From assembly GCA_947088415.1 (NCBI GenBank), contig CAMUGK010000002.1, forward strand, positions 1-32,772: a stretch of 32,772 nt of DNA, written 5' to 3'. This DNA is from an uncultured Bacillota bacterium (lineage in GTDB: Bacteria; Bacillota; Clostridia; Christensenellales; UBA1242). Shown piece by piece: positions 48 to 21,807 of this stretch. The notes beneath the pieces were generated by a model. That model made no database searches. It was not told the origin of the DNA and saw only the letters and a program-made list of their open reading frames with translations. Numbering within the stretch: the first letter of the stretch is position 1; the number at the start of each line of letters is the position of its first letter. Made by a program: the position numbers and the translations under genes.

Positions 48-230
48 ATGGAACAGCAAGAAAAAATATGTATTTCTATCCAAGAGATGGCTCAGTTGCT
101 TGGAATTGGAATAACTTCTGCCTACAAACTTGCAAACGATAAACTATTTTATCCAGCAAAGCGTGTTTGTGGAAGAATCGTAATACACTACGATTTGCTT
201 GAAAAGTGGATAAAAGAACAAAACAACTAG
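48..230 (+). CDS. Small helix-turn-helix DNA-binding protein of the AlpA/excisionase type
   Basis: 60-aa ORF with GGAGG 8 nt upstream. ISIQEMAQLLGIGITSAYKLAND reads as an HTH, and the C-terminal part (RIVIHYDLLEKWI) is typical of excisionase/AlpA-like regulators. It sits directly upstream of the primase gene. Confidence 0.6.
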   Translation: MEQQEKICISIQEMAQLLGIGITSAYKLANDKLFYPAKRVCGRIVIHYDLLEKWIKEQNN

Positions 231-238
231 GAGCGATT

Positions 239-2242
239 ATGGAAAATATTTTTACAGAGGTTAAAAATCGTTTGTCCATAAAGGATGTTATTGAGCATTA
301 CTCCACTGCAACATTTAATAAAGATAATAAATGCCATTGTCCATTCCCAGATCATCAAGATGTAAAAATCCCGTCGTTGTCAATACGGAAAGCAAATAAT
401 ACATTTAGATGTTTTGGGTGTGACAAAAGTGGCAGTGTTGTTGATTTTGTTATGATGTATAAAGGAGTAGATAAAATCCAAGCAGTTAGAATGCTTAATG
501 AAGATTTTAACCTAGGCTTAAACTTTAAAGATCAGAGCAAAAAGAAATTTGATATCAAAAAGTATTTGTTGACATGCGAAAAAGACATTGGACAAACAGA
601 TTACTTTATTAAACGAGGATTGTTACCTACAACAATTAAGAAACATAGGCTTGGCTATGACAAAGTTAAAAATGCGGTAACAATACCTTACAACGGTAAA
701 ATGAATTATGGTCAAATAAGATATGTGAATGAGAAAAGATTTTGGAAACCACCTACAAGTGATGTTGGCACAGAGCCAATATATAATGAAAATGCAATAA
801 ACGATAAAGATAATGAGCCAATCTTTATTGTTGAAAGTCCAATATGTGCAATGAGTATTGAACAATATAACTCAAAAGCAATTGCGATATGTGGCGGTGG
901 CGGAGTTTCTAAGTTGGATAAGGCACTTAAAGGCAAGAAAACTTGCAACCTGGGATTTATACTGGCACTAGACAATGATGAGCCAGGTGCGAGATATACT
1001 GACGAATTTGTGGCGTATTTTAAGAGCAAGAGAATTAAATATGTGGTGTGCAATATTTCTGGCAAAGAGAAAGATCCTAATGATTTACTAAAAAAGTCCT
1101 CTGAGGCTTTGGTTAAAAATATAGTCAAAGCAAGAAAGGAATATTATAGTAAATGTACGTCATATAGAGATTTAAAATCGGCGCAAGAAATTACGAGCAT
1201 GACACTGAAACCCGTGAATTGGTTGATTCAAGACCTATTTCCTACTGGATTGAGTATTATTTGTGGGGCATCTAAGATTGGGAAAAGTTGGTTTGTACAG
1301 AACTTGTGTTTATCTATAAGTAATGGGGATAAATTTTTAGATAAACCTGCATCAAGAAATGCTTGTTGGTATATGGCGTTAGAAGACGATGAAAGTCTGT
1401 CACAAGCAAGATTAAAAATGATGTTGAAAGGTAAAACTGCACCAAGCAACTTTTTTATATCCTATGAAATATATCCAATGGACAAGATTGATAAAGACAG
1501 GCCTACACTTATGGAATATATTGCTGAAAACATAAAAAGGAATCCAGAAATTAAATGTGTGGTTGTAGATACATTTCAAAAGGTGCGAAGTGCTTCGGCA
1601 TATGGCGAGAGTATGTATGCTCATGATTATAGAGATATATCTACCCTTAAAAAACTTGCTGATGAGTTGCAAATTGCAATAATTCTCATTCATCACACCA
1701 ATAAAATGAAAGACAGAGATACAGACGGCGATCCATTTGCTAAAATTAGTGGAACTAATGGACTGATGGCAAGTGCGGACTGTATTTTTTTGTTGGATAG
1801 AAAACGTGGAGAACAAGAAGTTCAACTTGCTTTTACTGGAAGAAAAATAAGGTGTGACACTTGGACAATATGTCAGAGCGAGACGGATATGACCTGGTCA
1901 AAAATAGGAACGGTCGAAGAAGAAGCCTACAAAAAGAAGTTAAAAGAATACAATCATAGCCCTTATGTAATTACAATTAAGCATTTGCTTGCTGTAAACG
2001 ATGGAGATTGGAGTGGGTCCTCTACTAAGTTTATAGAAGAACTTGGTAAACTTTATCCTAATGGAATGCCTATAAATCCAGTTCCTGCTGTTGTTGGGAG
2101 AGATATAAACGAAATGTCTGAAAGTTTAAAGCAGTTTGATCAAATAATTCATTTAAATACAAACCCACATGGTGGGACAAATGGTAGACAGCATAGGTTC
2201 TACTACATTAATAAAAAGAAAGAACAAACCTCTATATCTTAG
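239..2242 (+). CDS. Primase (CHC2 zinc finger plus Toprim) fused to a RepA/DnaB-like P-loop ATPase
   Basis: The track ORF is 206..2242. I prefer the ATG at 239, with GGAG at 230-233. Motifs seen: zinc finger CHCPFPDH...CFGCDKSG (nt 332-421), Toprim-like IFIVESPICA and LALDNDEPG, Walker A GASKIGKS (nt 1265-1288), and Walker B VVVDTF. Confidence 0.85.
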   Translation: MENIFTEVKNRLSIKDVIEHYSTATFNKDNKCHCPFPDHQDVKIPSLSIRKANNTFRCFGCDKSGSVVDFVMMYKGVDKIQAVRMLNEDFNLGLNFKDQSKKKFDIKKYLLTCEKDIGQTDYFIKRGLLPTTIKKHRLGYDKVKNAVTIPYNGKMNYGQIRYVNEKRFWKPPTSDVGTEPIYNENAINDKDNEPIFIVESPICAMSIEQYNSKAIAICGGGGVSKLDKALKGKKTCNLGFILALDNDEPGARYTDEFVAYFKSKRIKYVVCNISGKEKDPNDLLKKSSEALVKNIVKARKEYYSKCTSYRDLKSAQEITSMTLKPVNWLIQDLFPTGLSIICGASKIGKSWFVQNLCLSISNGDKFLDKPASRNACWYMALEDDESLSQARLKMMLKGKTAPSNFFISYEIYPMDKIDKDRPTLMEYIAENIKRNPEIKCVVVDTFQKVRSASAYGESMYAHDYRDISTLKKLADELQIAIILIHHTNKMKDRDTDGDPFAKISGTNGLMASADCIFLLDRKRGEQEVQLAFTGRKIRCDTWTICQSETDMTWSKIGTVEEEAYKKKLKEYNHSPYVITIKHLLAVNDGDWSGSSTKFIEELGKLYPNGMPINPVPAVVGRDINEMSESLKQFDQIIHLNTNPHGGTNGRQHRFYYINKKKEQTSIS

Positions 2243-3389: not shown

Positions 3390-3400
3390 GGAGAAAAATT

Positions 3401-4792
3401 ATGCCATGTATTAAGAAAAATGTGCTAGACACGGGTGCGATTTCATATCGCATCCAAGTTAAAGCTAAGAATGAGCGAACTGGCAAGTTTGAGGCCAAAG
3501 TTATGACTTGCAGAAAGCCAGCAGAGTTAACAGAAAGGCAATATGAAAGAGAACTGCAAAGAATCGCCTTTGAGTTCGAGGATAAGTTTCGCAAGTCTAT
3601 GAATGGTTTGCTTGCGGTGGATAATGACATATTGTTTATAGATTATGCCAACAAATGGTTAGAAAAAGTTAAAAACACTAAGTCTCTCAACTATTATGTT
3701 AAAGGAAAAGACAGTATTAAAAAGTTCTATGCTTACTTTGGAAACATTAAACTTAATCAAATCACGCCAGTTATGGTGCAAGGTTTCTTGGATGAAATGA
3801 GTTATAAAAAGTGTGAAAAGAAAAGTGCCGTGATGATTAAAGACATAACACAATACCTTAAATCGCACTGCATTAAATTGGTTGATGCCACAAACAAAAC
3901 TGGTATATCAAGGTCAATATTCTTTTCGGCCACAAGCGGACATGGAATAATGGTTGAAAATGCTGAGCGAATATGTAAAGAGTTGGGATTAAAATATGAC
4001 GAATACTTTAAGACAGAAATAATCTCACATCCTTATGCAAAGGAAACAATACTAAAACTTAAACGAACACTTGCAACAATATTAGCAGAGGCAAAAAGAC
4101 AAAGGCTTGTTGAACACAACTTCGCAAGCAGAGATTATATTGCACCGATACAAGGCTACAAGAAAGAAATACAAATTCTAAATGATAAAGAAGCGAAAAT
4201 ACTGGCACAATACTTGGATACTGAACCAAACCCTCGCTGGAAGATCTCTCTGTTAACAATCTTGTTTATGGGGTTAAGGCGTGGCGAACTTGCTGGCCTT
4301 GAATGGCAAGATATTGACTATGAGAATAAGACAATGACAATTCAAAGATCGGTGCAAGACATCGTCGGCTTTGGACTTATAACCAAAGATCCAAAGACCG
4401 AGAACTCAAAACGCACAATATCAATGCCAGATAAACTAATAACTTACTTGAAAGAATATCAAGTATGGTGGGATAATCAAAAGCACTATCTTGGCGACCG
4501 CTGGAAAGATACTGACCGATTATTCTGCACAGAAGATGGAAAAACAATCTCGCCAGGATTATTTAGAGTATGGCTACAAAAGACATTAGTAAAAGCGGGC
4601 TTGCCAAAAGTGTCCCTTCACTCACTTCGCCACACTAATATAACCTTGCAATTAATCGCAGGTGTAGACATGAAAACCGTCTCTGCTCGTGCAGGCCACA
4701 GTAAAGCATCTACCACAAGCGACTTCTATAGCCACTTTATAAAGAATTCAGATATTCACGCGAGTGAAATATTGAATAAAATATTTGAATAA
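3401..4792 (+). CDS. int: Tyrosine recombinase / integrase
   Basis: Catalytic-domain motifs seen: GLRRGELAGLEWQDID, HSLRHTNIT, AGHSKASTTSDFYSH (R...HxxR...H...Y). AAGGAG RBS. Homologous along its length to the integrase at 13955..15376. Confidence 0.9.
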   Translation: MPCIKKNVLDTGAISYRIQVKAKNERTGKFEAKVMTCRKPAELTERQYERELQRIAFEFEDKFRKSMNGLLAVDNDILFIDYANKWLEKVKNTKSLNYYVKGKDSIKKFYAYFGNIKLNQITPVMVQGFLDEMSYKKCEKKSAVMIKDITQYLKSHCIKLVDATNKTGISRSIFFSATSGHGIMVENAERICKELGLKYDEYFKTEIISHPYAKETILKLKRTLATILAEAKRQRLVEHNFASRDYIAPIQGYKKEIQILNDKEAKILAQYLDTEPNPRWKISLLTILFMGLRRGELAGLEWQDIDYENKTMTIQRSVQDIVGFGLITKDPKTENSKRTISMPDKLITYLKEYQVWWDNQKHYLGDRWKDTDRLFCTEDGKTISPGLFRVWLQKTLVKAGLPKVSLHSLRHTNITLQLIAGVDMKTVSARAGHSKASTTSDFYSHFIKNSDIHASEILNKIFE

Positions 4793-4869: not shown

Positions 4870-4886
4870 TCAATTAGGAGAAGCAT

Positions 4887-7800: not shown

Positions 7801-8777
7801 CTAAGCAAATTGATTTTATAAATAAATGGGTTGTTAAGCAATTAGAAGTAATAGATTTCAAAAATGCCATAACTTATAATGGCACGTCTTGGTCTACATC
7901 TTATAATGCGATGTATACAGAATATTTTATAAGAAAATGTGATTTGCTTGTTGATAATAATATTTATGAAGATATGTTATGCTTTACTTGGGGAGAAAAT
8001 TCTGATTCTGATATTTCCAATTTGGAGTTTATTGAACAAAAACTCGGCAGTGAAAACTTTAAATCAAAACTTTCAGAATTTAGTAAAAAGGACTTCTTAG
8101 ATGGCTATGTTTTAAGTAACAGATTGAGATATTGCATGAAAAAGGATTATGATATTTTGTTTGATTGTGTAATCAAAAAAATATCGAACTTAAATAAGGA
8201 TGAAACTGATTATCATTCTAGTATATACTTCGAGTATTTAAATAAATTTGGCAGACTAGCTTCTGCTTACGATTTTTATGACAATTTGCCAATTAATTTA
8301 AAGTTAGAATTAATACATATGAGTTTAAATCAAAATTTGGATAATAAATTCATTTTGGATCATACAGAGAAAGATATATCCTTAAATGATGAAAATTCTA
8401 TTAAAATAGCAAAAGCATTATTACCACATAGAAGTTCAGTTGCCTTAAAATATTATTATAAAACAATACATAAAGACGGCTTTGAAATATCATATCCATA
8501 TCCGACACTTAAAGCATATCAAGACAAAAAGTATTTTAAAACCTTATTTAAAATTTTAGCGTTGACATATAAATATAAGGATGAAGATAATCATACCAGA
8601 AATGACCTAATGTTTTGTTTTGAAAAAATTTGCATTAATTCGAATCTTAAGACAGTAAAGTATATAATAAAAAAATTAAACAGATTTACTAAAATCTCTA
8701 AGTATGAAAATGTAAATTATTTACATTATTATTTAGATGGTATAAAGCTGCAGATTATAACACAAAAAGACGCTTAA
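4887..8777 (+). CDS. NACHT-type STAND NTPase (1296 aa) with an uncharacterised N-terminal domain and a long alpha-helical C-terminal region
   Basis: Walker A ADASAGKT (GKT at nt 5544-5552). Walker B LLLLDGFDEI, the NACHT-typical hhhhDGxDE form. VVITSRKN follows it. About 200 aa lie upstream of the P-loop and about 800 aa of Leu/Ile/Lys-rich helical sequence lie downstream. The gene has its own promoter and terminator. Confidence 0.85.
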   Translation: MLSTLDKIHIILKTIATTATISNISGYEDMAKSLENFTKSLFKVLDNKDFGQPTILKCNNGNVEFVANDGTEYQVTTNNNFKAKCEKTIITFLENKQAGHTLQIVYYVLLSGNDKTKKKQLLSQYPKDVSIYDVEDICRKIAQCDDETVNKIFNICMEFYPIDFSNYALDTFTNSIKLCDDYIDRSFNVLNNNSFLKIESIDDLLKQYRNIVIMADASAGKTELLIKINNSYYDKQKCVYYYQLKNYNGKEIIKYLPKPFLLHPTPLLLLDGFDEIESVHVDNFIKELNTFTQIYPDCKVVITSRKNFCTRNMFDNFSYCELNDLTDTEIDAYFKDKFDEKHTEKINLCKTLNIYNLLYNPFYLTRIVKVLSLKDNLSNRSDIMKATFELDYNKYKYNKEISSETLLCQLTQFAMFLFQKDKSNCDISDYKQFDNDKMRAFSWLLYQDDKISFVHNNFKEFLIALRLSEFPVSKIIKIITLKLDKPYIKTKYTNILSFMLSSYKNDKLFDYVLKYGQYIILDLEESSLTEKQKIQIIEKIYKEYELKKSWPNAYLYNERKLAKICDTKKIIEILISKLKPKNHRTTIVFSIELLKEVPSLFGFTNKLKELVIQWLNDDCLDEVVLSSLIYSLNKLNASIEEVSSIYLKYRNHKYSRIRASVNYLLKEYKLATKFIPEVIEGFSKGQLKVLDVNHKEEDVIDAGESYYLQQAISEIRDENALEQLLDFIIENERKYETRSFTEYVFQALENKRKIGLKLQEKLYTLLSLTCLHYTDNLLNLTLNLIYKFKLNNEFMSKIFSDTEIKEYQKNLLIARLYTDESIFKCLDYFKSQTKQQIENFIYYLKEYNKNYADVISLLKAEGISCSLPKNDYELQRQKAIQTHFNNLFFKEKVIAIVRKILKDLNGDEISRKKVREHYLYSDYKLPFYIYSLFDIDSNNFNEKKILKQVTDNWQISQIYDMLHHNKQLELKSKQIDFINKWVVKQLEVIDFKNAITYNGTSWSTSYNAMYTEYFIRKCDLLVDNNIYEDMLCFTWGENSDSDISNLEFIEQKLGSENFKSKLSEFSKKDFLDGYVLSNRLRYCMKKDYDILFDCVIKKISNLNKDETDYHSSIYFEYLNKFGRLASAYDFYDNLPINLKLELIHMSLNQNLDNKFILDHTEKDISLNDENSIKIAKALLPHRSSVALKYYYKTIHKDGFEISYPYPTLKAYQDKKYFKTLFKILALTYKYKDEDNHTRNDLMFCFEKICINSNLKTVKYIIKKLNRFTKISKYENVNYLHYYLDGIKLQIITQKDA

Positions 8778-8790
8778 CCAGCGTCTTTTT
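8764..8790 (+). terminator. Rho-independent terminator of the NACHT gene
   Basis: AAAAGACGCT (8765-8774) pairs with AGCGTCTTTT (8780-8789). The stop codon lies in the loop and a T-run follows. Confidence 0.7.
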
Positions 8791-8798
8791 GTGTAAAT

Positions 8799-8844
8799 TG
8801 GTGAGAGTAAGAAGATTTGAACTTCCGACCTGTCGCTTAGGAGG
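8799..8844 (-). pseudogene. Orphan 3' half of a tRNA-Arg(CCU): anticodon loop to CCA. Acts as an att junction.
   Basis: The reverse complement reads CCTCCTAAG-CGAC-AGGTC-GGAAG-TTCAAAT-CTTCT-TACTCTC-A-CCA. No matching 5' half is adjacent: the upstream sequence GGTGGCTAATTGCC cannot form the anticodon or D stems. Confidence 0.75.
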
Positions 8845-9090
8845 GGCAATTAGCCACCGAAGTCCTATTGAATAACTTTTGAAATACACATATCTATTTG
8901 TATTATCAATTAACTTTTCATAGTATAATACAAAATTTGTGCTTTTGTCAAAAACTTCAAATAACTTTTGTTCCATGAGTAGCATTTTTAGTATGGTATG
9001 AAAGTTATAAATGACTTACAAACCGTCTTTACTCTTTAACTTAAATAAAAATTAAAACATCAGGGTTGATGTTGAGTTAAGGAGATTAAA

Positions 9091-9963
9091 ATGGAAAAGA
9101 ATAATTTAATAAAAGAAAACGACCTTGTTAAAGTAAGAGTTGTTAGAGATGAAGTAATATTACACAATATTAGCATGTGTAATCGTAAACCTGTTTCAAG
9201 AAGAATTGGAAATGGTAAAAGAGTTAATATTCAAACAGGCGAAATCACAGAAGAAAAGAAAACTGCAAAACGAGGCGAAAGCCTTTATAGTTTGCTTGAA
9301 AGCAATATTAAACTACAAGATTTAATTAAAGAAAATACTGTAAACTTAAAACATATACTTTTGCTAACATTCACTTACAGAGAAAAAACATTAGATATAA
9401 AGAAAATAAACGAAGATTTTAAGTCTTTTATGAAACGATTAAGGCGAAGAATAACTGAATTTGGAACAATAGAATATATAAACACACTTGAATTAGATAA
9501 TGGTGGCTATCATATACACGCAATAATTTTCTTTAATGAGTCTAAAAAGATTGTTTATATACCTGACACAATAATAGCAGAGATATGGGGTCATGGGTTT
9601 ATAAAGTTTGGGAAAAAACCTAAAACTAAAAAAGATGTATACTATTATGTGACACCTCACTTATCAAATGAAGTGACAAATAAAAATAGTCATATGCACT
9701 ATAAAGCACTAATGCAAATGGAACTACCAACTGGACAAAACCTTTATAGATATTCAAAAGGTCTTAAAAAGCCTATAATTCACACGGATACTTATGAAAA
9801 TGTGAAGAAATATCTTAAAGAAAATAGTTATGTGTTTGAAAGAGAAAATGTATATCTTAATCCTATGCAGTCTCACAGGGGCAACAACCTATACTATTGC
9901 AAAGAGTATTATAAAAAAGAAGAAACAAAGTCTTACGGATTAGGTAAACGAACACCTATCTAA
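9091..9963 (+). CDS. rep: HUH-superfamily rolling-circle Rep / relaxase-like protein
   Basis: Motif I-like ILLLTFTY. HUH motif GGYHIHAIIFF (H-I-H at nt 9511-9519). Tyr-rich motif DVYYYVTPHL. AAGGAG RBS. Confidence 0.7.
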   Translation: MEKNNLIKENDLVKVRVVRDEVILHNISMCNRKPVSRRIGNGKRVNIQTGEITEEKKTAKRGESLYSLLESNIKLQDLIKENTVNLKHILLLTFTYREKTLDIKKINEDFKSFMKRLRRRITEFGTIEYINTLELDNGGYHIHAIIFFNESKKIVYIPDTIIAEIWGHGFIKFGKKPKTKKDVYYYVTPHLSNEVTNKNSHMHYKALMQMELPTGQNLYRYSKGLKKPIIHTDTYENVKKYLKENSYVFERENVYLNPMQSHRGNNLYYCKEYYKKEETKSYGLGKRTPI

Positions 9964-9986
9964 ACTGCCTTTTAAGAAGCATTGAT

Positions 9987-10013
9987 ATTTAATATAATAA
10001 ATTTATATTAAAT
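9987..10013. repeat. AT-rich 11-bp hairpin just downstream of rep, plus a nearby direct repeat CCTATTTGCA x2
   Basis: ATTTAATATAA (9987-9997) pairs with TTATATTAAAT (10003-10013). CCTATTTGCA occurs at 10036-10045 and 10070-10079. Confidence 0.4.
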
Positions 10014-10149
10014 AATTTATATCAGCCATTTTAGACCTATTTGCAGTGGCGAGAAAGTTTGTGACAGTCCCTATTTGCAAAATAATAGCCCCAAAGTTAT
10101 AATTTTTATATAAACTAAGAGCAAAGTGTGATATAATGCAAAGGGAGGC

Positions 10150-10974
10150 ATGAAAATGAAACAAATAAAAACTTCCATCTATTGGTTTATTTTAATTTGT
10201 AGTGTTTTAATGGCGGTTTTAATAACAATAGCAACTACTATGGGTTCAAATAATTTAATTATAGGACTTATTTCAGGTGTTTTTTCTAGTGCTATGGTTG
10301 TTTTGATTGACCTTTTTATAAAATATTTTATAAGTAAAAAAGAAACATTTCAAACTATTACAAATTCAGTTTATAATTTATTTTCACAAGTAATCTTATT
10401 TATTTCAAGTATAGAAGATTTTGGGTATAATGATTTTGAATTATGGTATGAAAATATCCAAAACAAACGAAAAGAATTACTAAAAAGTTCAAGGGACTTA
10501 ATAGATAACATTTGCGATGTTTACTGCTTTTTCAAAAAAGGATATAAACTTGTTGGAGAACTTTATCAACTTTTTTATACATTAGACTTCTATGAGTTAT
10601 TAGATTTCTCAAATAGCGAAATTACTTTGGAAATTCAAAATACTATAATAGAAATTGAAGACATGGACTTACTAAAATATAGAGATAAAATAAGGCTTAA
10701 AAACAAATTTGAAAAATTAAAAGATAATTATAAAAATCAATTAAAAGAAGGAATTAAAAAATTAAACGAATACCTTCATCCAGTAGAAAATATTTATAAA
10801 GATATGTGTAAAAAATATTTCAATGAAAGTATTTATAACAATGCTAAAAAGTTTTTGAATAATTTAGATTTTGAATTAAATGATAAAAAATTAAATTATG
10901 CCTTTAGAGAGATTTTTATAAAGCAAGATATTCAATTAAAATATTTGAGTAAAGATAAAAAAGACTTGCAGTAA
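10150..10974 (+). CDS. Membrane protein with two N-terminal TM helices and a helical cytoplasmic domain of about 200 aa
   Basis: TM segments IYWFILICSVLMAVLITIATTM and LIIGLISGVFSSAMVVLIDLFI. The ATG at 10156 has better spacing to GGAGG (10144-10148) than the ATG at 10150. A terminator hairpin is shared with the convergent XRE gene. Confidence 0.6.
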   Translation: MKMKQIKTSIYWFILICSVLMAVLITIATTMGSNNLIIGLISGVFSSAMVVLIDLFIKYFISKKETFQTITNSVYNLFSQVILFISSIEDFGYNDFELWYENIQNKRKELLKSSRDLIDNICDVYCFFKKGYKLVGELYQLFYTLDFYELLDFSNSEITLEIQNTIIEIEDMDLLKYRDKIRLKNKFEKLKDNYKNQLKEGIKKLNEYLHPVENIYKDMCKKYFNESIYNNAKKFLNNLDFELNDKKLNYAFREIFIKQDIQLKYLSKDKKDLQ

Positions 10975-11001
10975 TTTGCAGGTCTTTTGTTTTATTTGTT
11001 T

Positions 11002-11301
11002 TTAAGCAATGTAATAATAGCACTTTTTTTTATCAGGGCTGGCGGTTTTAAGTAAGTCTATAATCTCTTTGTCTTTGCGATATGCACTTATCTCATAATA
11101 AAAAAATTCAGAAACAGATGAATCACAAGCGTCTATAATTTCAAGCAGTGCTGAAACTGAAGGCTCAAAACTATCATTTTTAGACTCTAGACGGGAGATA
11201 TAGGCGGGATTTTTACCTATTTTCAAACTTAAATCACGAGCAGATAAACCTTTGTCTGACCTTAATCTACTTATACGAAAAATAACCTCTTTTTTATCCA
11301 T
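11002..11301 (-). CDS. XRE-family HTH transcriptional regulator
   Basis: LRSDKGLSARDLSLKIGKNPAYISRLESKN is a classic Cro/CI-type HTH. The gene is divergent from the operon at 11466-12944. Confidence 0.85.
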   Translation of the reverse strand: MDKKEVIFRISRLRSDKGLSARDLSLKIGKNPAYISRLESKNDSFEPSVSALLEIIDACDSSVSEFFYYEISAYRKDKEIIDLLKTASPDKKKCYYYIA

Positions 11302-11396
11302 AAATCCACCTCACAAATATACTAAAATTATAAATGATAAGCGGCTTTATGGCACTTTGCAACACTTGTAAAAATTACATAGTATGAAACTATTTT

Positions 11397-11445
11397 GCAC
11401 TTATAAGTGCATTTGTTTGCTTTTACATTCATTTTGTGCTATTAT
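11397..11445 (+). promoter_or_regulatory. Perfect 14-bp palindrome (candidate operator) abutting the operon promoter
   Basis: GCACTTATAAGTGC at 11397-11410. -35 TTGCTT at 11417-11422, a 17-nt spacer, and an extended -10 TGcTATTAT ending at 11445. Confidence 0.45.
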
Positions 11446-11465
11446 ACTTACATGAGAGGTGCAAA

Positions 11466-12302
11466 ATGAAAATTATTTTAAGTAAAAAGGGGTTAGACAG
11501 TAGCAACAGTGTTAAGCCTATAACTATTGATAATAAGCAAATGATATTTTTGCCTATTCCAAGTAATCAAGATTATGATAATGCAAGATATAGCGAAGTG
11601 TTTGAAAATAAAATATCATTGCTTTTCTATTGTATGGAAATGGGTATTGATTTTGGTTATATAGACAACAAAAAATTGCCAATGAATGGAACTACAAACT
11701 GCCATTTAGACCCACAACTTATAAATTATTTTGGTTATGATAATTTCAAAGGTAGTTTTGGGCAAGTGAAAGCCGCCCAGAAGCATTTAGAAAATAAACA
11801 AGTGCAAGCAGGCGATTTGTTTTTGTTTTATGGTTGGTATACCGATAATAAAACACATAAAGAAAAGCATACTCTTTTTGGCTATTTGCAGGTTGGAGAG
11901 ATTATAAAAGTTAATGAGTTGACTGCAAGCCAAAAGCAAAAAATAGTTGATAAATATCCTTGGCTACACCATCAACCTCATTGGTATAGCCAAGAAACAA
12001 ATAATACAATTTACATAGCAAGGGAAACCTGTTCATTTAATAAAAATATCAAAGGTTTTGGAATGTTTAAATATGATAAAGAATTAGACTTGACAGCAAA
12101 AGATATTGGCACAAAAACCTGCTGGGAAATTTCAGCATTGAAAAATTGTAAAGTATCTTTCAAAGACCATAATGGAAACGACAGTTTTAATGATTTGGGA
12201 CAATTTAGAGTTGCTGACCGCTGTCAAGAGATAGTTATTGAAGAGTGTCCGCAGGCTGAAAAGTGGGCTATAAACTTAATTAAAAAATATAAAAGGAGAT
12301 AA
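11466..12302 (+). CDS. Conserved-looking protein of unknown function (279 aa), possibly Nmad3-like
   Basis: The track ORF starts at a GTG (11436) inside the -10 box. The ATG at 11466 has GAGAGGTG upstream. The N-terminus MKIILSKKGLDSS..., CHLDPQL, FGQVKAAQKHL and GDLFLFYGWY resemble my recollection of Nmad3 (nucleotide-modification-associated domain 3) proteins. This is from memory and unverified. Confidence 0.6.
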   Translation: MKIILSKKGLDSSNSVKPITIDNKQMIFLPIPSNQDYDNARYSEVFENKISLLFYCMEMGIDFGYIDNKKLPMNGTTNCHLDPQLINYFGYDNFKGSFGQVKAAQKHLENKQVQAGDLFLFYGWYTDNKTHKEKHTLFGYLQVGEIIKVNELTASQKQKIVDKYPWLHHQPHWYSQETNNTIYIARETCSFNKNIKGFGMFKYDKELDLTAKDIGTKTCWEISALKNCKVSFKDHNGNDSFNDLGQFRVADRCQEIVIEECPQAEKWAINLIKKYKRR

Positions 12303-12304
12303 AA

Positions 12305-12625
12305 ATGAAAAACATAAGTTTAACAGTAGAATTCAAAAATCCAGAAAAAGAATTGCAAGAACAATTACAAAGAAATGGTGCAAGAAATATAAGCATAAGA
12401 AGAAATTTTGACGGCTGTCTTGAAGTGTCTTACAAAATTGTTTGTGCTGACCCACAAAAAGAAATTGAAAAAATGCTGTCATCATCTGGCGGACAAAGTG
12501 TTAGAAGTTCGTCAAGTTATAATGGTGCAAGATTTGATATGAAAATTGACGATCGTCTTGATGAAAGAGAGTTCAAAAAGCAAATTATAGACGCTCTCCG
12601 CAGAGCAGGTTTTAGAGCAAACTAA
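12305..12625 (+). CDS. Hypothetical protein (106 aa), closely coupled to the upstream gene
   Basis: The ATG lies 2 nt after the upstream TAA, with AGGAG inside the upstream 3' end. No motif recognised. Confidence 0.6.
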   Translation: MKNISLTVEFKNPEKELQEQLQRNGARNISIRRNFDGCLEVSYKIVCADPQKEIEKMLSSSGGQSVRSSSSYNGARFDMKIDDRLDEREFKKQIIDALRRAGFRAN

Positions 12626-12639
12626 AAACAACTAAAAAT

Positions 12640-12674
12640 AACCGTCTCCGTTATGATTAGTAGGAGGCGGTTTT
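12640..12674 (+). terminator. Terminator-like hairpin whose 3' arm contains the RBS of the next ORF
   Basis: AACCGTCTCC (12640-12649) pairs with GGAGGCGGTT (12663-12672), with one G-T pair. TTTT follows, then the ATG at 12675. Confidence 0.5.
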
Positions 12675-12944
12675 ATGTTTTTAGAAATTTACGATAAGTT
12701 TGACAAAAAGTTAGGAGATGTTTTTGTTAGTGAAGATGGCCATATGTCTTTATGTTTTGACAATAAAAATAATTTGCTAGGCAGAATTGTTGGAGATGAG
12801 AAAGTTTTATTTGCCTTTGATGAAGATGATAGGTATTTAGGAAGATATGATAGTCTTTATACTTACGATAGGCATGACAACTTGTTAAAAAGGGGTAATT
12901 TAATATATAACATGTTTTATCTCACCATTAAACACATTAGATAG
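12675..12944 (+). CDS. Small repeat-containing protein (89 aa), possibly 4-fold beta-flower-like
   Basis: Internal repeats: DNKNNLLGRIVGDE, DEDDRYLGRYDS and DRHDNLLKRGN. The family name is recalled from memory only. Confidence 0.5.
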   Translation: MFLEIYDKFDKKLGDVFVSEDGHMSLCFDNKNNLLGRIVGDEKVLFAFDEDDRYLGRYDSLYTYDRHDNLLKRGNLIYNMFYLTIKHIR

Positions 12945-13323
12945 CCCTGCAAGTGCCTGCAAATGGCGTGAGAACAGGCAAAAGAGTTTTTATCGGTAAA
13001 TCGACCATGAAAATATAAAAAGCCATACAAAAGGCTAAATAATAGGAAAAGTCCGCAAACAGAAAGCGGTCTTTTTTTATGCTATTTTTTATCTTAAAAC
13101 CATGACATGGTAAAACATCGCTTCAATAACCCCTGTCGTGTGAAGTCATATGTAAACAACGAGTTGGGATAGAGCAAAAAATCACTATAGTCCTGTGTGC
13201 ACATTAAAAGCACACGAAAATTTACGGGATTTTTCGGGAAATACGGCAAAATGGTTGCCTTCTCTGCCTGCATCGGCTTTAATGAGTTCTAACTCGAAAA
13301 ACTCCCATTACAAAAGGAGGTAA

Positions 13324-13518
13324 ATGGTTATGTATAGGACGATAGAGCAAGCCTATGCTTACTTAAAAGAACTTGACCCTAACACAGCACTAACAAAATA
13401 TTATTTGAGAGTTTTGTGTCAAACAAACCAAATCACAGTGCTTAATATAGGCTCAAAGTTTTTAATCCAACTTGAAAGTTTATGCGACTTTCTAAAAATC
13501 AAATTATGTGAAAACTAA
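13324..13518 (+). CDS. Excisionase-like HTH protein
   Basis: Homologous to the ORF at 3171..3389 and located upstream of the integrase. The ATG at 13330 has better spacing to GGAGG (13316-13320) than the ATG at 13324. Confidence 0.6.
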   Translation: MVMYRTIEQAYAYLKELDPNTALTKYYLRVLCQTNQITVLNIGSKFLIQLESLCDFLKIKLCEN

Positions 13519-13536
13519 AAATATAAGGAGTAAAAA

Positions 13537-13953
13537 ATGGAAATCAAAAATTTAGGAAAGTATGTAAGTGTGTTAGACAATGGCTTAATGCAAATGATTG
13601 GAGAAAAACCTATTGAATATACACTACATGCTCAATTTAGAAGCACAGTCACAGGTGCGATAACAAGATTTGAAAAAGTTGTAAAAAATACAAAAGAATT
13701 TGAAGGAAAAGAACTTAAAGAGTTTTTATATTCAAACCTTCAAGAATTTATTAAAGAACGAGAGTTTAGGTTTATATATAACTTTATACCTTATGAGTCA
13801 GCGGAATATGAATTCCCTAACAAAAAAGGCAAGGTAAAGACATGGAAAGCAAAAGTGTTTTATAGTGAAAGCGAAAAAGAAAGTCATAAAATGTTTTTGA
13901 AATTAGCACAAGCAAGAGAAGAACAAAAGTTAAGAAAAAAAGGAGTAATGTAA
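13537..13953 (+). CDS. Hypothetical protein (138 aa)
   Basis: AAGGAG RBS. The stop codon lies 1 nt before the integrase ATG. No motif recognised. Confidence 0.6.
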   Translation: MEIKNLGKYVSVLDNGLMQMIGEKPIEYTLHAQFRSTVTGAITRFEKVVKNTKEFEGKELKEFLYSNLQEFIKEREFRFIYNFIPYESAEYEFPNKKGKVKTWKAKVFYSESEKESHKMFLKLAQAREEQKLRKKGVM

Positions 13954-13954
13954 A

Positions 13955-15376
13955 ATGGCAACATATGAGAAAAGAACAGCAAAGAAGGACGGTCATATCA
14001 CATATGGCATACAAATCAAAGTTAAGGACTATTTGGGTAGAGATAAATTTGTAAACACTACTTGGAAAAACCCTAACAACCTTACAGGCGAAAGAGCAAA
14101 AAAGGCTGCGATTGCTTTTGGTGAAACATGGGAAGCAGAATATAAAAACGGTCATACCCATAAGTTAAGCAATGCAAGTTTTAATCAAGTAGCAAATGAG
14201 TGGCTACGAAATGTTAAACACAGAGTATCATTAAACTATATTTTACGATCGGAAGATTGTATTAAAAGAATGACCGAATACTTTGGAGATGTAAGATTTG
14301 TAGATTTAAGGGCTCATGAAATCCAACAATTTATCACATACCTAAACGAATATACTTACAAAACTATAACCGCAAAAGTAAAAGAATATAAACTTGATGA
14401 GTTTAAGGAAAGTATAAAAGCAAATGGCGGTGCGAGAAAGGCAGAGAGAGATGGAATAATATCACGCCCTGTGTTTTACTATGCTACACATGGAGAACCT
14501 ATTGCATATAGCAGTGCCGAGAAAATTTGTAATTTATTAAAAATAAGTATAAAAGAATTTTTTGAAAAGATTGTAGTTGAAAAAGGTTATGCAAAAGAGA
14601 CAATACTAAAATATCAACACACATTAAGTGCAATTTTCAATTATGCAATCAAAAATGAGTTAGTGACTTCAAATTATGCTTCAAGTGTTTACACAAAAGA
14701 TAGCATAGGCGGAAGAAAAACCGAAGAAGCCAAAATATTAACTAACCAAGAATATGACAAATTATTAGAAACTTTGAAACTTGCGGACAACAAGTTAGAC
14801 AACAAAGGACAACCACTTAATCTTATTTGGGAAACTATACCTTTGTATGTTATGACCCAATTAGGACTTAGAACTGCCGAAGTGTGCGGTCTTAAATGGG
14901 AAGATATAGATTTAGATGAAAGAGTTTTGAGTGTATGCAGAGATAGAGTTTACACTCCAAAATATGGTGTTTATGATAGAGATACAAAAACTGCTAAATC
15001 AACAAGAAAATTATTTATAAGTGATTTGTTAGCCGAAAAATTACAATTATTCAAAGATAAATATGAAGAACTTAAAAAAGCCGATAAAAAGTTTGATAAA
15101 AGAGGCTATATCTTTTGTAATGTTGATGGCACACCAAAGTTCCCACAATATCTTAACTATTTACTACAAAAATATCTTTTAGAAGCAAATGTCACAGTTG
15201 TATCAAATCATAAGATACGACACACATGGATAACAAGACTTATCACAAATGGTGCACCTGTAAACGGAGTTGCACAAATGGCAGGTCATGCCGACAAAAA
15301 TACAACATTAAAGATATACACTCACTTTTCAAAAGATGTTAAGGCATCACAAGAATTGTTGACAAAATATTTGTAA
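13955..15376 (+). CDS. int: Tyrosine recombinase / integrase
   Basis: GLRTAEVCGLKWEDID, HKIRHTWIT, AGHADKNTTLKIYTH. Same architecture as the integrase at 3401..4792, including the shared segment ISRxxF..AT.G......AEKIC. Confidence 0.9.
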   Translation: MATYEKRTAKKDGHITYGIQIKVKDYLGRDKFVNTTWKNPNNLTGERAKKAAIAFGETWEAEYKNGHTHKLSNASFNQVANEWLRNVKHRVSLNYILRSEDCIKRMTEYFGDVRFVDLRAHEIQQFITYLNEYTYKTITAKVKEYKLDEFKESIKANGGARKAERDGIISRPVFYYATHGEPIAYSSAEKICNLLKISIKEFFEKIVVEKGYAKETILKYQHTLSAIFNYAIKNELVTSNYASSVYTKDSIGGRKTEEAKILTNQEYDKLLETLKLADNKLDNKGQPLNLIWETIPLYVMTQLGLRTAEVCGLKWEDIDLDERVLSVCRDRVYTPKYGVYDRDTKTAKSTRKLFISDLLAEKLQLFKDKYEELKKADKKFDKRGYIFCNVDGTPKFPQYLNYLLQKYLLEANVTVVSNHKIRHTWITRLITNGAPVNGVAQMAGHADKNTTLKIYTHFSKDVKASQELLTKYL

Positions 15377-15410
15377 TGTTATTGAGACACACAAAAACTT
15401 AATAAAATAA

Positions 15411-15443
15411 AATGCTAGGTGCGAATACTCGTATCCTAGCATT
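15411..15443. terminator. Bidirectional terminator hairpin between the integrase and the HEPN gene
   Basis: AATGCTAGG (15411-15419) pairs with CCTAGCATT (15435-15443). Confidence 0.6.
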
Positions 15444-15465
15444 GATAATGTTTCGACATGAATTA

Positions 15466-16116
15466 TTATGGTCTTTTTATTGATTGAAGAATAGAAACTA
15501 ATTTTTCAGTATCTAAACTTTTTCTAGTAAGATAGCCAAGTTGATAATCTTCAAACAATATATCTATTGAATTGCCAAAAGTATTATGACAAGAACTAAT
15601 TTTGTCATGCCCTAGCAATTCAAACATATTGTTCATTAAGTCGAAGATATTTTCAAGTAAAGCAATTATTTTTGCAGAGTCTAATTTTAAGAGAAATATG
15701 TCTGAGTTTGCATTTCGCAGTTTTTTATCAAAATGTGCTAAATAATTATCTCTAAATGTTCTTAATTTTGACAACTCATCTTTATTGTCGCTTATCAGAG
15801 TGTCAATATTTTTAGCAAGTTCTTTTAGTTTTAGGTCGTTTTGTTTATCTAGAATTTTATTTGAATTTATAAAGTTTGAAACACTTTGAATAGATAAGGA
15901 ATCAGGGTCGCCATCAAATAATTTAGCAGCAGTTAACATAGATTGTTCTTTTAATGAATGAGAAATATGTCCTAAGTCATTTTTTAGAATGCCATAAGAC
16001 GACTTATCTATTTCATACCAATCGTTTATTCTTTCATTCAAGTAATAGTTGTTTTGGACTTCACTAATTTTAGAATGTAAAAATTTAAGTGTTTTAGTCA
16101 AAATATCAGAATTCAT
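15466..16116 (-). CDS. HEPN-domain protein, AbiU2-like abortive-infection candidate
   Basis: The internal ATG at 16116 has AGGTGA upstream. The track start at 16149 lacks an RBS. An Rx4-6H motif, RDNYLAH, lies at nt 15733-15753 within LRTFRDNYLAHFD. The protein is all-alpha and Leu/Asn/Lys-rich. Confidence 0.6.
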   Translation of the reverse strand: MNSDILTKTLKFLHSKISEVQNNYYLNERINDWYEIDKSSYGILKNDLGHISHSLKEQSMLTAAKLFDGDPDSLSIQSVSNFINSNKILDKQNDLKLKELAKNIDTLISDNKDELSKLRTFRDNYLAHFDKKLRNANSDIFLLKLDSAKIIALLENIFDLMNNMFELLGHDKISSCHNTFGNSIDILFEDYQLGYLTRKSLDTEKLVSILQSIKRP

Positions 16117-16162
16117 TATCACCTCACAAAATAAAAAGTATCTAGCCAAATAGATACTTAAA

Positions 16163-16237
16163 TGGTGTTCCCAAGCCGACTCGAACGGCTGACTAACCCT
16201 TAGGAGGGGTTTGTAATATCCACTTTACTATGGGAAC
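16163..16237 (-). tRNA. tRNA-Arg (anticodon CCU), intact, 75 nt with encoded CCA
   Basis: The reverse complement folds as GTTCCCA TA GTAA AGTGGATA TTAC A AACCC CTCCTAA GGGTT AGTC AGCCG TTCGAGT CGGCT TGGGAAC A CCA. All four stems are Watson-Crick paired. Confidence 0.9.
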
Positions 16238-16379
16238 ATAAAACTTATAAAAAACTATAAAAAATTGGAGTGAAGATGGCTTTTGTATGGGATTTACGAA
16301 AATCACAAAAACATAATACCACAGAAAACCTAGTAAATACAAGGGTTTTAGGGGTTTTCAGGGGTGGCTATAACAAAGC

Positions 16380-16419
16380 CTTAGGAGGCGACCGCTCTAT
16401 CCAGCTGAGCTACGAAAAC
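16380..16419 (-). pseudogene. Orphan 5' half of a different tRNA-Arg(CCU): positions 1 to about 39. Acts as an att junction.
   Basis: The reverse complement reads GTTTTCG TA GCTC AGCTGGATA GAGC G GTCGC CTCCTAA G. It then continues into non-tRNA sequence (GCTTTGTTATAGCCACC). Confidence 0.75.
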
Positions 16420-16680
16420 AGGATGATATAAGTATAGCATATATTGATAGTTAAAGCAATTATATTTTATAATGTCAAAAGTTTTGATTATATGAAAAGC
16501 GTTAAAAGTATCAATTTTGGACAGAATTCGATGTTGCACGATATTATTCGACAACTTTCGATAAAGTTTTTGTGTAAAATGTAAAAAATTCTTGCAAACG
16601 ATAGTAAGAAAATTTTTATCATATTCAATTTTATGGTATAACATATTTAAGATTTATTTACTTTTGTTTAGGGAGTCAAT

Positions 16681-17256: not shown

Positions 17257-17502
17257 AAACATTGAGGTTAGTCAGTTACTTTTGAAACTAGCGAAATAAG
17301 TAAAGAAAAACATAGACAAAACAATCTATGTTTTCTTTTTTACCCTTACTCTCGCTTAACTGCCAAACAAAACGAATAATTCTACCGTTGTCATAGGTTG
17401 TCGTGCAAATAATAATTCTTAAATTCATAAGACACTCGCATTGACCTTGACAACAAAAAATATTCGCTTACACTGAAAAATAGAGAGAAGAAAACAAAAA
17501 GC

Positions 17503-17545
17503 AAAAGAGCGGGCTGCGTTATGCTCTGCCAGCAACCGCTCTTTT
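17503..17545 (-). terminator. Terminator downstream of the XRE gene at 17635..17877
   Basis: AAAAGAGCGG (17503-17512) pairs with CCGCTCTTTT (17536-17545). A T-rich run follows on the minus strand. Confidence 0.55.
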
Positions 17546-17634
17546 TGCAACAAAGTTTAGTTGTAGGCGTGTGCTTGTATGGCGAGGCAACGCCGAGCCA
17601 CTTGTTCAAGACAAGCACACGTTAGAATCCCAAA

Positions 17635-17877: not shown

Positions 17878-18027
17878 ATCACACCACTATAAAATTCAAA
17901 TAATAAAAAAGTTAATTTAAGTGAAATATATTGCACTTATTACTTGCTATTTTAAATTAAATTTGTTAATATATAAGTGAAGCGCTCTGCACCTATTGTG
18001 TAGTATGCTCACTAAAAAGGAGTTTTT

Positions 18028-21798: not shown

Positions 21799-21807
21799 GA
21801 GCAAAAT

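Follow-up and report, generated by a model that had tools for sequence, protein, structure and literature searches.

The window analysed here, a stretch of 32,772 nucleotides, contains an integrative element of 7,535 bp at 8845-16379 (element 2) that very probably integrates in the anticodon loop of tRNA-Arg(CCU) genes, does not repair its target, brings its own replacement tRNA and is stacked in the tRNA gene of another element (element 1). According to this explanation, the element 2 integrase would use any tRNA-Arg(CCU) gene as target by recombining in its anticodon loop. Element and target would share no more than 8-9 bp, namely C31, the loop CUCCUAA and G39. As no tRNA fragment of the element would lie beside the crossover site, the target tRNA would stay cut in two. 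The complete tRNA-Arg(CCU) supplied by element 2 would take over the decoding function; it has the same orientation as the severed 5' half and follows it downstream at a distance of about 140 nt. Element 1 is larger and has a primase-helicase, an integrase homologous to that of element 2 and, as cargo, a STAND NTPase. It probably belongs to a sister family with the same mode of working and a different carried tRNA-Arg(CCU). A carried tRNA would itself be a target because its anticodon loop is the same, and in the window element 2 would occupy the loop of the tRNA of element 1. This would mean that, in gut Clostridia, the spare tRNAs of small defence islands that are not phages serve as insertion sites for other such islands.

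The 9-mer CTTAGGAGG occurs in the window at 8836, 16199 and 16380, always on the plus strand; the shuffle expectation was 0.07 copies, and at least three copies were found in 0 of 100 shuffles. The three copies, a tRNA 3' half at 8799-8844, a 5' half at 16380-16419 and a sole intact tRNA-Arg(CCU) at 16163-16237 had been reported in an earlier note, and all were confirmed by counting, ARAGORN and Rfam. The junctions and tRNA pieces are as follows:

8764..8790: hairpin and T run between the cargo gene of element 1 and the tRNA 3' end, terminator-like as read from the sequence
8799..8835, minus strand: 3' half, positions 40-76, CCA encoded, acceptor strand TACTCTC; truncated tRNA model match
8836..8844: core copy 1, junction between element 2 and the 3' half
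16163..16237, minus strand: intact tRNA-Arg(CCU), acceptor GTTCCCA/TGGGAAC, anticodon stem AACCC/GGGTT (ARAGORN; Rfam, 59.2 bits)
16199-16207: core copy 2, within the anticodon loop of the intact carried tRNA
16238..16379, minus strand: 142-bp tail of element 2 between junction and tRNA, with the inverted-repeat arm GGTGGCTA at 16363-16370
16380..16388: core copy 3 (C31, anticodon loop, G39), junction between the severed 5' half and element 2
16389..16419, minus strand: 5' half of a tRNA-Arg(CCU), positions 1-30, acceptor strand GTTTTCG, the outermost half in the window; truncated model match
16487..16514, minus strand: promoter-like site TTGATA-16-TATAAT, candidate native tRNA promoter, 11/12 consensus matches

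Read on the minus strand from 8844 to 8799, the 3' half consists of C31, the loop CUCCUAA, G39 and the segments CGAC, AGGTC, GGAAG, TTCAAAT, CTTCT, TACTCTC, A and CCA. The 5' half, read from 16419 to 16380, consists of GTTTTCG, TA, GCTC, AGCTGGATA, GAGC, G, GTCGC, CTCCTAA and G. Neither half was listed by the Rfam scan of the whole window. The covariance model, which the earlier note had proposed as a check, recognised both halves after trimming as truncated matches, 8802-8844(-) to model positions 30-71 (24.3 bits, E 9e-4) and 16380-16419(-) to positions 1-38 (19.3 bits, E 0.017). Both scores lie under the 29-bit cutoff for full-length tRNAs, as expected because these are half molecules. Low scores and absence from the whole-window scan would also fit chance tRNA-like sequences or decayed pseudogenes with no tie to integration. 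However, this is extremely unlikely, as a single T-loop base separates the 3' half from the corresponding halves of the intact tRNAs in L032, L039 and L051, with which it also has its 3' flank in common, 64 genomic tRNA-Arg(CCT) genes have exactly the sequence of the 5' half over positions 8-39, both halves break exactly at the 9-mer that is present three times, and the same breaks recur at many loci.

The anticodon-stem strands of the two halves are complementary (GTCGC/GCGAC), as would also be the case for a functional split tRNA gene, the parts of which are separately transcribed and joined in trans as in Nanoarchaeum. We regard the probability of such a gene as negligible. The acceptor strands GTTTTCG and TACTCTC cannot pair, as the earlier note had already pointed out, and ARAGORN did not call a tRNA when the two halves were joined. 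In addition, the 3' half has neither a promoter-like site of its own nor a complementary leader, and an integrase-bearing insertion with target-site repeats fully accounts for the split.

Apart from the tRNA and the tail, element 2 contains the following features:

8845..8858: left end, with the inverted-repeat arm TAGCCACC at 8851-8858
9091..9963, plus strand: rolling-circle replication initiator (Rep; PF23343, E 5e-14; PHROG annotation rolling-circle replication initiation)
11002..11301, minus strand: HTH (Cro/CI-type) regulator (domain search)
11436..12302, plus strand: Nmad3-domain protein (PF18754, E 4e-43)
13955..15376, plus strand: tyrosine integrase, 473 aa (PF00589, E 3e-27)
15466..16149, minus strand: HEPN/AbiU2-family cargo gene adjoining the tRNA (PF18734, E 2e-14); its true start is probably near 16116, because 216 aa are called in other copies

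For the integrase, 25 homologues were found, and it is 31% identical to the integrase of element 1 over the full length. The joined ends of element 2 form an 8-bp inverted repeat around the core (p about 0.02), and equivalent repeats of 7 bp and 6 bp surround the core in the related elements L083 and L078, the sequence differing between relatives. The tail has conserved blocks in common with the tails of related elements (alignment of six tails).

Near-identical copies of element 2 were found in at least five contexts other than the window. The copies in L001-L005 and L071-L077 are 99.8-100% identical, and their ends fall exactly at the cores. The left end abuts five different 3' halves, namely those in the window, in L002/L072/L076, in L001/L073, in L075, where the half adjoins the host genes rplM-rpsI, and in L077. 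The right end abuts three different 5' halves (window, L001 and L004), and in these three cases copy identity stops at core copy 3. Recombination in the anticodon loop, as claimed in the earlier note, is borne out by these copies, which end at the 9-mer beside varied halves. The same holds for the claim that the target gene is left split: in every copy, the severed 5' half is followed by the 142-bp tail, which is not tRNA sequence. The carried tRNA is present in every copy that reaches that far and moves with the element in every context, and related elements with integrases 43-52% identical to that of element 2 (L078, L081 and L083) have their own tRNA in the same position, in agreement with the proposal that element 2 brings its own tRNA. 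The layout of these relatives is Rep, Nmad3, integrase, own tRNA and tail, followed by the core and a 5' half; the Nmad3 protein is kept in the family and is present in L081 and L083. The junction positions, the absence of repair and the carriage of a tRNA are shown by the sequences.

When the flanks were joined in silico, a valid tRNA-Arg(CCT) was restored at three loci, L083, L081 and L089. An unsplit gene, which the earlier note had suggested looking for in related genomes, is found in L066, which has an intact tRNA with flanks nearly identical to the split ones in L004 on the 5' side and in L076 on the 3' side. In 11 Firmicutes genomes, fossil arrays made up of 5' half, core and tail were detected upstream of a working tRNA, and stacks are visible from the 5' side in L004, L014, L015, L032, L039, L051, L053, L062 and L066.

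An integration of the classical, restoring type would read the window differently. In that reading, 8845-16207 would be mobile, with no more tRNA sequence beside its crossover than the 3' half 16163-16198. The intact tRNA would combine the element's 3' half with a 5' half already resident, and the tail together with 16380-16419 would be a scar of older date. Such an arrangement is the textbook one (PMC4383910), core copies 1 and 2 share 11 bp versus 9 bp for copies 1 and 3, a circle formed from cores 2 and 3 in a stack of this type would act classically, and some of the 5'-half arrays could be produced in this way. Nevertheless, we consider it improbable for element 2. The tail and the tRNA 5' half stay with the element at 99.8-100% identity behind three upstream 5' halves, the displaced 3' halves, of which there are five types, never match the carried tRNA, the inverted repeats surround the outer junctions, and it is the outer, not the inner, flanks that rebuild a tRNA in L083, L081 and L089.

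The element-borne tRNAs keep their acceptor and T stems by compensatory changes, with double changes in 11 of 15 pairs. The carried tRNA at 16163-16237 is presumably expressed; a promoter scan yielded no site inside the 142-bp tail. If the carried tRNA is expressed, reading of AGG by tRNA-Arg(UCU), which the earlier note had invoked, is not needed to explain why the loss is tolerated. Element 2 is presumably also excised in the source strain; a circular form or attP junction was not found, the joined-end pattern having no match in viral or metagenome contigs.

Left of element 2, the window contains the following genes of element 1:

206..2242, plus strand: primase-helicase; the element runs past the left end of the window
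3401..4792, plus strand: tyrosine integrase, 463 aa
4887..8777, plus strand: cargo, P-loop (STAND/NACHT-like) protein, 1296 aa (weak NACHT match, E 0.0012, below the curated cutoff)

The family of this integrase is large, with 470 proteins at E<=1e-30, and the cargo protein had no PADLOC match. In L070, the same element 1 (99.99% identical) reaches 6.6 kb further to the left and still has no end there, and its 3' half is joined to another element. The intact version of the tRNA from which the 3' half derives (GAGGGTA...TACTCTC) is present with the same 3' flank and terminator in L032, L039 and L051. Hairpins equivalent to 8764..8790, which was not flagged by the terminator scan, follow the same tRNA type in L014, L032, L053 and L066, and element 1 relatives in L087 and L089 have the same layout as the element 2 relatives. 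The 3' half 8799-8835 is not host DNA; it is a remnant of the replacement tRNA-Arg(CCU) of element 1, so that element 2 would have inserted into the tRNA of element 1. Of the earlier proposal that tandem elements split a host tRNA, the split stands, whereas the two elements would not lie side by side in one host gene.

In contrast, the 5' half 16389-16419 is probably a remnant of the native gene, because of its position and the promoter-like site about 68 nt upstream. This site is only suggestive, because the count of such sites in the region is not above the shuffle expectation. A search of 185,579 species genomes and of JGI metagenomes yielded no intact tRNA with the acceptor strand GTTTTCG, and the flank to the right of the 5' half varies between genomes.

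The flanks of element 2 do not rebuild a tRNA in the window or in L001, which calls for either one or more additional events or a chimeric assembly. The 5' half and tail expected for element 1 are missing from the window. The mismatch of the halves is due to either a later rearrangement or a chimeric assembly. The missing parts could have been lost by recombination between a 33-bp repeat common to both 5' halves, by use of a non-cognate pair of cores, or by an assembly that merged two genomes via the shared element. In the last case, the junctions would be real, and the assembler would have crossed the 7.5-kb element, common to two genomes of one sample, thereby joining element 2 in the tRNA of element 1 with element 2 in a native tRNA. 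We regard such a chimeric contig as a possible but rather unlikely explanation, and it accounts for the mismatch of the halves only. Element 2 is nearly identical across many hosts and samples, L001, where the halves also mismatch, comes from a metagenome assembly, and matching cases indicate that simple insertions exist. However, the left context of L001 recurs in L073, which stems from a different sample, and a biological route is at hand in the 33-bp direct repeat. A chimeric contig would leave the main explanation unaffected.

The proposed mechanism matches "tRNA-dependent lysogeny", which was experimentally shown in mycobacteriophages in 2024 and has been described for the actinobacteriophages Fionnbharth, Cluster L and Gaia (Guerrero-Bustamante & Hatfull, mBio 2024, PMC10865867). 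In these phages, as in the elements studied here, recombination depends on a tyrosine integrase, the sequence common to attP and attB is confined to a short core of 8-10 bp around the anticodon, and neither junction reconstitutes the tRNA. The loss is complemented by a same-isotype tRNA that the phage carries. However, those systems are complete temperate phages of Actinobacteria that use the tRNAs Lys-TTT and Leu-CAA, whereas our elements range from 7.5 kb to more than 15 kb, have no detected phage structural genes, contain defence-type cargo and would stack through their tRNAs. Complementation is proven for the phages and presumed for the elements, and the accessible part of that article does not describe a carried tRNA directly behind the junction or as a further insertion site. 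New here are the non-phage defence islands, the stacking via a spare tRNA and the 5'-half arrays.

A mid-tRNA core and a split gene that is uncomplemented at the junction are also known from the pelagiphages HTVC019P, HTVC119P and HTVC200P (10.1101/410191) and, as cited in PMC10865867, from the Lactobacillus johnsonii prophage Lj965. As in our elements, the proposed substitute is an intact cognate tRNA at another place in the element. In contrast to our elements, these are phages, the position of the pelagiphage tRNA varies (either upstream of the integrase or between the lysozyme and the primase), and stacking or 5'-half arrays are not reported (10.1101/410191, PMC10865867). The Prochlorococcus tycheposons (10.1101/2020.12.28.424599) resemble our elements in being small, in combining cargo with a tyrosine recombinase and either a primase/helicase or a Rep module, and in residing at tRNA genes, sometimes adjacent to one another with partial tRNAs in between. 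However, they are found in marine cyanobacteria, their partial tRNA repeats are of the usual kind, and a complete replacement tRNA is not described in the accessible part of that source.

Classical islands centred on the anticodon (Williams 2002; Islander, PMC4383910) share with our elements the integrase superfamily and the sublocation, with the 7-nt loop as overlap and the stem providing dyad symmetry, and classical islands likewise form tandem arrays at one tRNA gene. They bring along a tRNA fragment of 30-45 bp by which the gene is rebuilt, and they leave a displaced fragment behind, this being a 3' fragment in 3,760 Islander islands and a 5' fragment in 159 (PMC4383910). In our elements, in contrast, there is no rebuilding, and 5' halves remain upstream of a working gene. 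The classical pattern was observed at the same anticodon loop in the Xanthomonadales loci L007, L017 and L068.

The 9-mer CTTAGGAGG, which spans C31, the anticodon loop CUCCUAA and G39 of tRNA-Arg(CCU), was found at 8836, 16199 and 16380 (cores 1, 2 and 3), always on the plus strand. About 0.07 occurrences are expected, and three copies were reached in none of 100 shuffled sequences. ARAGORN and the Rfam tRNA model identified a single tRNA-Arg(CCT) in the window, around core 2 (16163-16237, minus strand, 59.2 bits), and an unrelated tRNA-Asn at 30897-30972. Read on the minus strand from 8844 to 8799, core 1 begins a complete 3' half, i.e. C31, CUCCUAA, G39, CGAC, AGGTC, GGAAG, TTCAAAT, CTTCT, TACTCTC, A and CCA. 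From 16419 to 16380, a complete 5' half runs into core 3, i.e. GTTTTCG, TA, GCTC, AGCTGGATA, GAGC, G, GTCGC, CUCCUAA and G. The Rfam scan of the whole window listed neither half. In the covariance-model check proposed by an earlier note on this DNA, the trimmed halves were scanned alone, and both matched the tRNA model as truncated molecules: the 3' half at model positions 30-71 (24.3 bits, E 9e-4) and the 5' half at positions 1-38 (19.3 bits, E 0.017). A chance resemblance to tRNA was rejected. The two halves pair in their anticodon stems but not between their acceptor strands (GTTTTCG against TACTCTC), and ARAGORN found no tRNA in the joined halves; a functional split tRNA of the Nanoarchaeum type was rejected on these grounds. 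The earlier description of three 9-mers, in a 3' half, a 5' half and one complete tRNA-Arg(CCU), with complementary anticodon stems and unpairable acceptors, was thus accurate throughout. The crossover site consists of the anticodon loop and its closing pair. Neither junction of the DNA between cores 1 and 3 forms a tRNA (ARAGORN, Rfam). A non-coding tail follows the 5' half, and what precedes the 3' half is element DNA without tRNA sequence.

Features of the left-hand element 1 (1-8843, left end beyond the window) and of element 2 (8845-16379, between cores 1 and 3)
206-2242, element 1: primase-helicase
3401-4792, element 1: tyrosine integrase (PF00589, E 1e-18)
4887-8777, element 1: P-loop protein of 1296 aa, weakly matching NACHT
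9091-9963, element 2: rolling-circle Rep
11002-11301, minus strand, element 2: HTH regulator
11436-12302, element 2: Nmad3-domain protein
13955-15376, element 2: tyrosine integrase (PF00589, E 3e-27)
15466-16149, minus strand, element 2: HEPN/AbiU2 gene
16163-16237, minus strand, element 2: intact tRNA-Arg(CCT)
16238-16379, element 2: non-coding tail, 142 bp

The two integrases share 31% identity over their whole length. Further copies of element 2 were retrieved by exact-protein look-up of its integrase and Rep, mostly from mouse-gut assemblies, and their DNA was 99.8-100% identical to window 8845-16379. These copies lie next to a variety of tRNA halves.

DNA abutting the ends of element 2 in the window and in comparison loci (L numbers) from other genomes and metagenome assemblies
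Left end (GGCAATTAGCCACC...), window: 3' half, acceptor TACTCTC
Left end, L002/L074, L072 and L076: 3' half, acceptor TACTCAC
Left end, L001/L071 and L073: 3' half, acceptor CAGTCGC
Left end, L075: GTTCCCA-type 3' half beside the host rplM-rpsI genes
Left end, L077: G+C-rich-type 3' half
Right end (...GGTGGCTATAACAAAGC), window: 5' half, acceptor GTTTTCG
Right end, L001: 5' half, acceptor GTTCCCA
Right end, L004: 5' half, acceptor GTGGGTA

Since the anticodon stems of the targets differ, the 9-bp repeat is the sole sequence common to the ends of element 2 and eight different target halves; in the related loci L083 and L089, this core is 8 bp long. Identical Rep and integrase proteins in at least five tRNA-Arg(CCU) sequences suggest that only 8-9 bp of the target must match. 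The tail and the intact tRNA were present in every element 2 copy reaching that far, and a carried tRNA was present in all relatives examined. As the copies end at the cores and retain tail and tRNA, the mobile unit is 8845-16379, with the 9-bp repeat in direct orientation on either side, and the complete tRNA is part of it. This bears out two proposals made before, namely that recombination occurs in the anticodon loop, where near-identical copies stop against differing tRNA halves, and that element 2 brings its own tRNA, 16163-16237.

At the joined ends, the core is surrounded by inverted repeats whose sequence differs between relatives; they measure 8 bp in element 2 (p about 0.02), and 7 and 6 bp in L083 and L078, respectively. 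A TGGCTA / TGGATAG / GGGATT motif lies 6-8 nt from the core in the element arm (window 8845-8858, L083:3982-4000 and L078:3864-3885). It resembles the D-loop TGGATA found 9 nt from the core in target 5' halves, an inverted copy sits in the tail, and it may represent a core-type binding motif of the integrase. The right-junction pattern of element 2 had no match in IMG/VR or in metagenome contigs, and no circular form was evidenced there.

The 3' half at core 1 has a different origin from that first assumed. An intact tRNA of the type GAGGGTA...TACTCTC was found in L032, L039 and L051; compared with 8799-8835, its 3' half has a single changed base, in the T loop, and the ATTTACA... flank and terminator hairpin behind it are as in the window. 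A conserved tail (TACCGACTTGAAC...) precedes this tRNA type in eight loci (L014, L015, L032, L039, L051, L053, L062 and L066). In the loci with readable downstream DNA (L014 and L087-L092), what comes after the tRNA is cargo that varies and an element 1-family integrase. Because a near-identical intact tRNA occurs elsewhere with the same flank, the tail and this integrase family, the 3' half of the window is what is left of the replacement tRNA that element 1 itself carried. The earlier note had the host gene left split; this stands insofar as no tRNA is rebuilt at either junction, but not for the 3' half.

Element 1 is also carried, at 99.99% identity to window 1-8843, by L070, from another metagenome, where the 3' half of its tRNA joins a different, prophage-like element at CTTAGGAG. 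The carried tRNA of element 1 is thus evidently a repeated target. The joined element (L070:15380-17100) looks like a prophage, since it encodes a LexA-like repressor and, immediately at the junction, an integrase on the opposite strand. The adjoining stretch of 27 nt is similar to a degenerate 5' half of a tRNA (GTGGATATTGACAA), but no tRNA results. L070 extends element 1 leftward by 6.6 kb, with restriction-modification genes and an excisionase-like HTH; no core marking its left end was found in this extension. A complete member of the element 1 family, L089, contains Hachiman, an HNH protein, a restriction-modification system, an integrase, AbiTii, its own tRNA and a tail. The recognised defence systems of its members characterise the family as a vehicle for defence genes. 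Across L087 and L089-L092, these comprise type I restriction-modification with a shufflon-type recombinase, KwaA (Kiwa), HamA with a helicase (Hachiman), AbiTii and an HNH/SRA protein. PADLOC made no defence-system call on the cargo genes of the window. AGG frequencies were 5.1 and 6.5 per 1000 codons in the two elements versus 3.0 in the right-hand genes, a roughly twofold difference based on small counts.

Intact targets were sought in a genome-wide scan with tRNA positions 8-39, which yielded 64 loci. L066 (like L015 and L053) contains an intact tRNA GTGGGTA...TACTCAC, and its flanks are nearly identical to those of the split genes in L004 (5' side) and L076 (3' side). The comparison with unsplit genomes that the earlier note had recommended therefore yielded an intact gene, and by their flanks L066 on the one hand and L004 and L076 on the other are an empty/occupied pair for element 2. 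Elements with the layout of element 2 occur in clean chromosomal contexts in L078, L081 and L083, where the homologous integrase has 43-52% identity. Joining the outer flanks in silico produced a valid tRNA-Arg(CCT) for L083, L081 and L089, and none for the window or L001. In the carried tRNAs of twelve elements, the acceptor and T stems are kept via compensatory changes, and these tRNAs are therefore under selection as tRNAs.

The 5' half of the window is its outermost half and is preceded by a promoter-like TTGATA-16-TATAAT; with moderate confidence, we assign it to the native gene. Its GTTTTCG acceptor strand occurred in no intact gene found: the 40-nt half had no exact match in JGI metagenome contigs, and the acceptor was absent among the 64 genome matches. 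The unsplit native gene was therefore not recovered. If element 2 had simply inserted into the tRNA of element 1, the 5' half of that tRNA and the element 1 tail would lie to the right of 16388, as is seen in L004. In the window, both are absent from this position. Three routes to this mismatch fit the data: recombination at a 33-bp direct repeat common to the native and element 1 5' halves, an integrase acting on a non-cognate pair of cores, or an assembler crossing between two genomes via the shared 7.5-kb element. All three leave the reading of both junctions unaffected.

Arrays of 5' halves were found in 11 of the 64 loci, all from Firmicutes, in which one or two units consisting of a 5' half, CCTCCTAAG and a tail of 44-230 bp lie upstream of a working tRNA-Arg(CCT). 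The units fall into two tail families, and both nesting orders were seen: in L032, L039 and L053 the element 2 tail comes first, upstream of that of element 1, and L004 has the reverse order. Such arrays occur in two Clostridia of about 60% G+C (L058:5100-5400, with a unit period of 83 bp, and L012:7300-7500, sense-strand coordinates) and in an Erysipelotrichaceae genome (L056:2150-2300). Their tails, of 44 to 96 bp, are much shorter than that of element 2.

In all cases the carried tRNA has the orientation of the severed 5' half and is located 44-230 bp downstream of it. No terminator-like site was found between the two, and a promoter scan of the element 2 tail revealed none inside. The tail alignment contains a conserved AT-rich block just before the tRNA, possibly a promoter or a group of arm sites for the integrase. 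Transcription of the carried tRNA might proceed by read-through from the native promoter or from a promoter of its own.

According to the textbook rule, the gene is rebuilt from a tRNA fragment that the integrating element brings along (PMC4383910, PMC8371274). This classical restoring model was rejected. The joined ends of element 2 contain no tRNA fragment, and both junctions are non-tRNA. Classical islands of the Islander type share with element 2 a crossover at one of three sublocations (anticodon loop, T loop or 3' end), here the anticodon loop, but differ in that the joined ends of element 2 lack tRNA-like sequence on either side of the core. In Xanthomonadales (L007, L017 and L068), the same tRNA-Arg(CCT) loop is used classically: downstream of an intact gene come 120-240 bp of element remnant, which contains GATTTGTCCCAG-type repeats, and beyond it the core with a displaced 3' half.

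The closest parallel is tRNA-dependent lysogeny, demonstrated experimentally in mycobacteriophages, in which a tyrosine integrase uses a common core of 8-10 bp, the target tRNA is left unrepaired and the phage must supply a tRNA of matching isotype (PMC10865867). Comparable mechanisms have been proposed for pelagiphages (10.1101/410191) and, as cited in PMC10865867, for Lactobacillus prophage Lj965. Element 2 has in common with tRNA-dependent lysogeny an element-encoded tyrosine integrase, a short core (here 9 bp, and 8 bp in L083/L089), junctions that rebuild no functional tRNA, and a complete carried tRNA. That cells with the integrated element would need this tRNA to survive has indirect support from the compensatory changes in the stems. 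The difference is that the elements described here are not temperate phages, as judged from IMG/VR, phage records and PHROGs. IMG/VR contained no relatives of either integrase, DNA similarity of element 2 to known plasmids and 50,697 phage records was restricted to the tRNA, and a scan of ten element ORFs gave Rep as the sole PHROG match and no capsid, terminase or tail families. In gene content, the elements resemble tycheposon-like or satellite-like islands with defence cargo; tycheposons likewise combine a tyrosine recombinase, a replication module and cargo at a tRNA, with partial tRNAs as flanks. Helper-hijacking genes of the PICI type (terS, capsid-size redirection) had no Pfam or PHROG match, and several element 2 ORFs matched nothing.

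The mechanism is known already, whereas its setting and one consequence, stacking, are new; excision, expression and the necessity of the tRNA are predicted. In open-access text, we found no description of stacking via a carried tRNA, of 5'-half arrays or of one element in many tRNA sequences. The balance tips modestly towards two related families of small defence-cargo islands in gut Clostridia that would use the invariant tRNA-Arg(CCU) loop as a minimal, host-independent attachment site and bring a portable, complete tRNA, which would lead to self-extending stacks. If so, the stems of the host tRNA need not be matched, allowing a broad host range, and every insertion would provide a fresh attachment site for the next island, so that defence islands would grow as self-extending nested stacks. 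As a new landing pad, the carried tRNA offers a simple route for island accretion at one locus, and the ordered 5'-half arrays upstream of the working gene would be a record of past insertions. Cutting a tRNA gene and bringing a replacement is not limited to temperate phages of Actinobacteria, but extends to small non-phage islands of gut Firmicutes with anti-phage genes. Island finders that seek a tRNA and a matching displaced fragment will miss such elements, and tRNA finders will not report the upstream arrays. Such integrases could also serve as integration tools with very short target needs.

To the right of the locus, neither product of the first ORF, for which two start codons were tried, was on record. 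The neighbourhood of the next HTH gene (window 17241-18233) recurs at 93% identity in L093, beside folate-biosynthesis genes. L093 was rejected as an empty site, because the similarity stops at window 17241, beside these unrelated genes; the right flank is therefore also mosaic and varies between genomes. Window 20995-24268 contains a DUF4417 gene and duplicated Cys_rich_CPCC genes, the CPCC cassettes at 22577 and 23463 being direct repeats of 77 nt with 90% identity. In L001:15-3317, a related cluster is found right beside the 3' half, in the opposite orientation, and it may be cargo of another element. Sub-threshold, weak His_leader matches on both strands of window 24406-24578 result from a palindrome that forms a strong hairpin (AAAAACCCCGTCAG...CTGACGGGGTTTTT) and is most likely a terminator for both directions. 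Window 20775-20841 and 24339-24405 are direct repeats of 67 nt (76% identical); one copy is part of an Amidase_3 gene and the other is non-coding, as would be expected of a gene fragment. Lastly, two tandem-like repeats of 62 nt (84% identical, 89 bp apart) occupy window 28422-28572, just downstream of the 3' end of an ABC-transporter gene on the plus strand.
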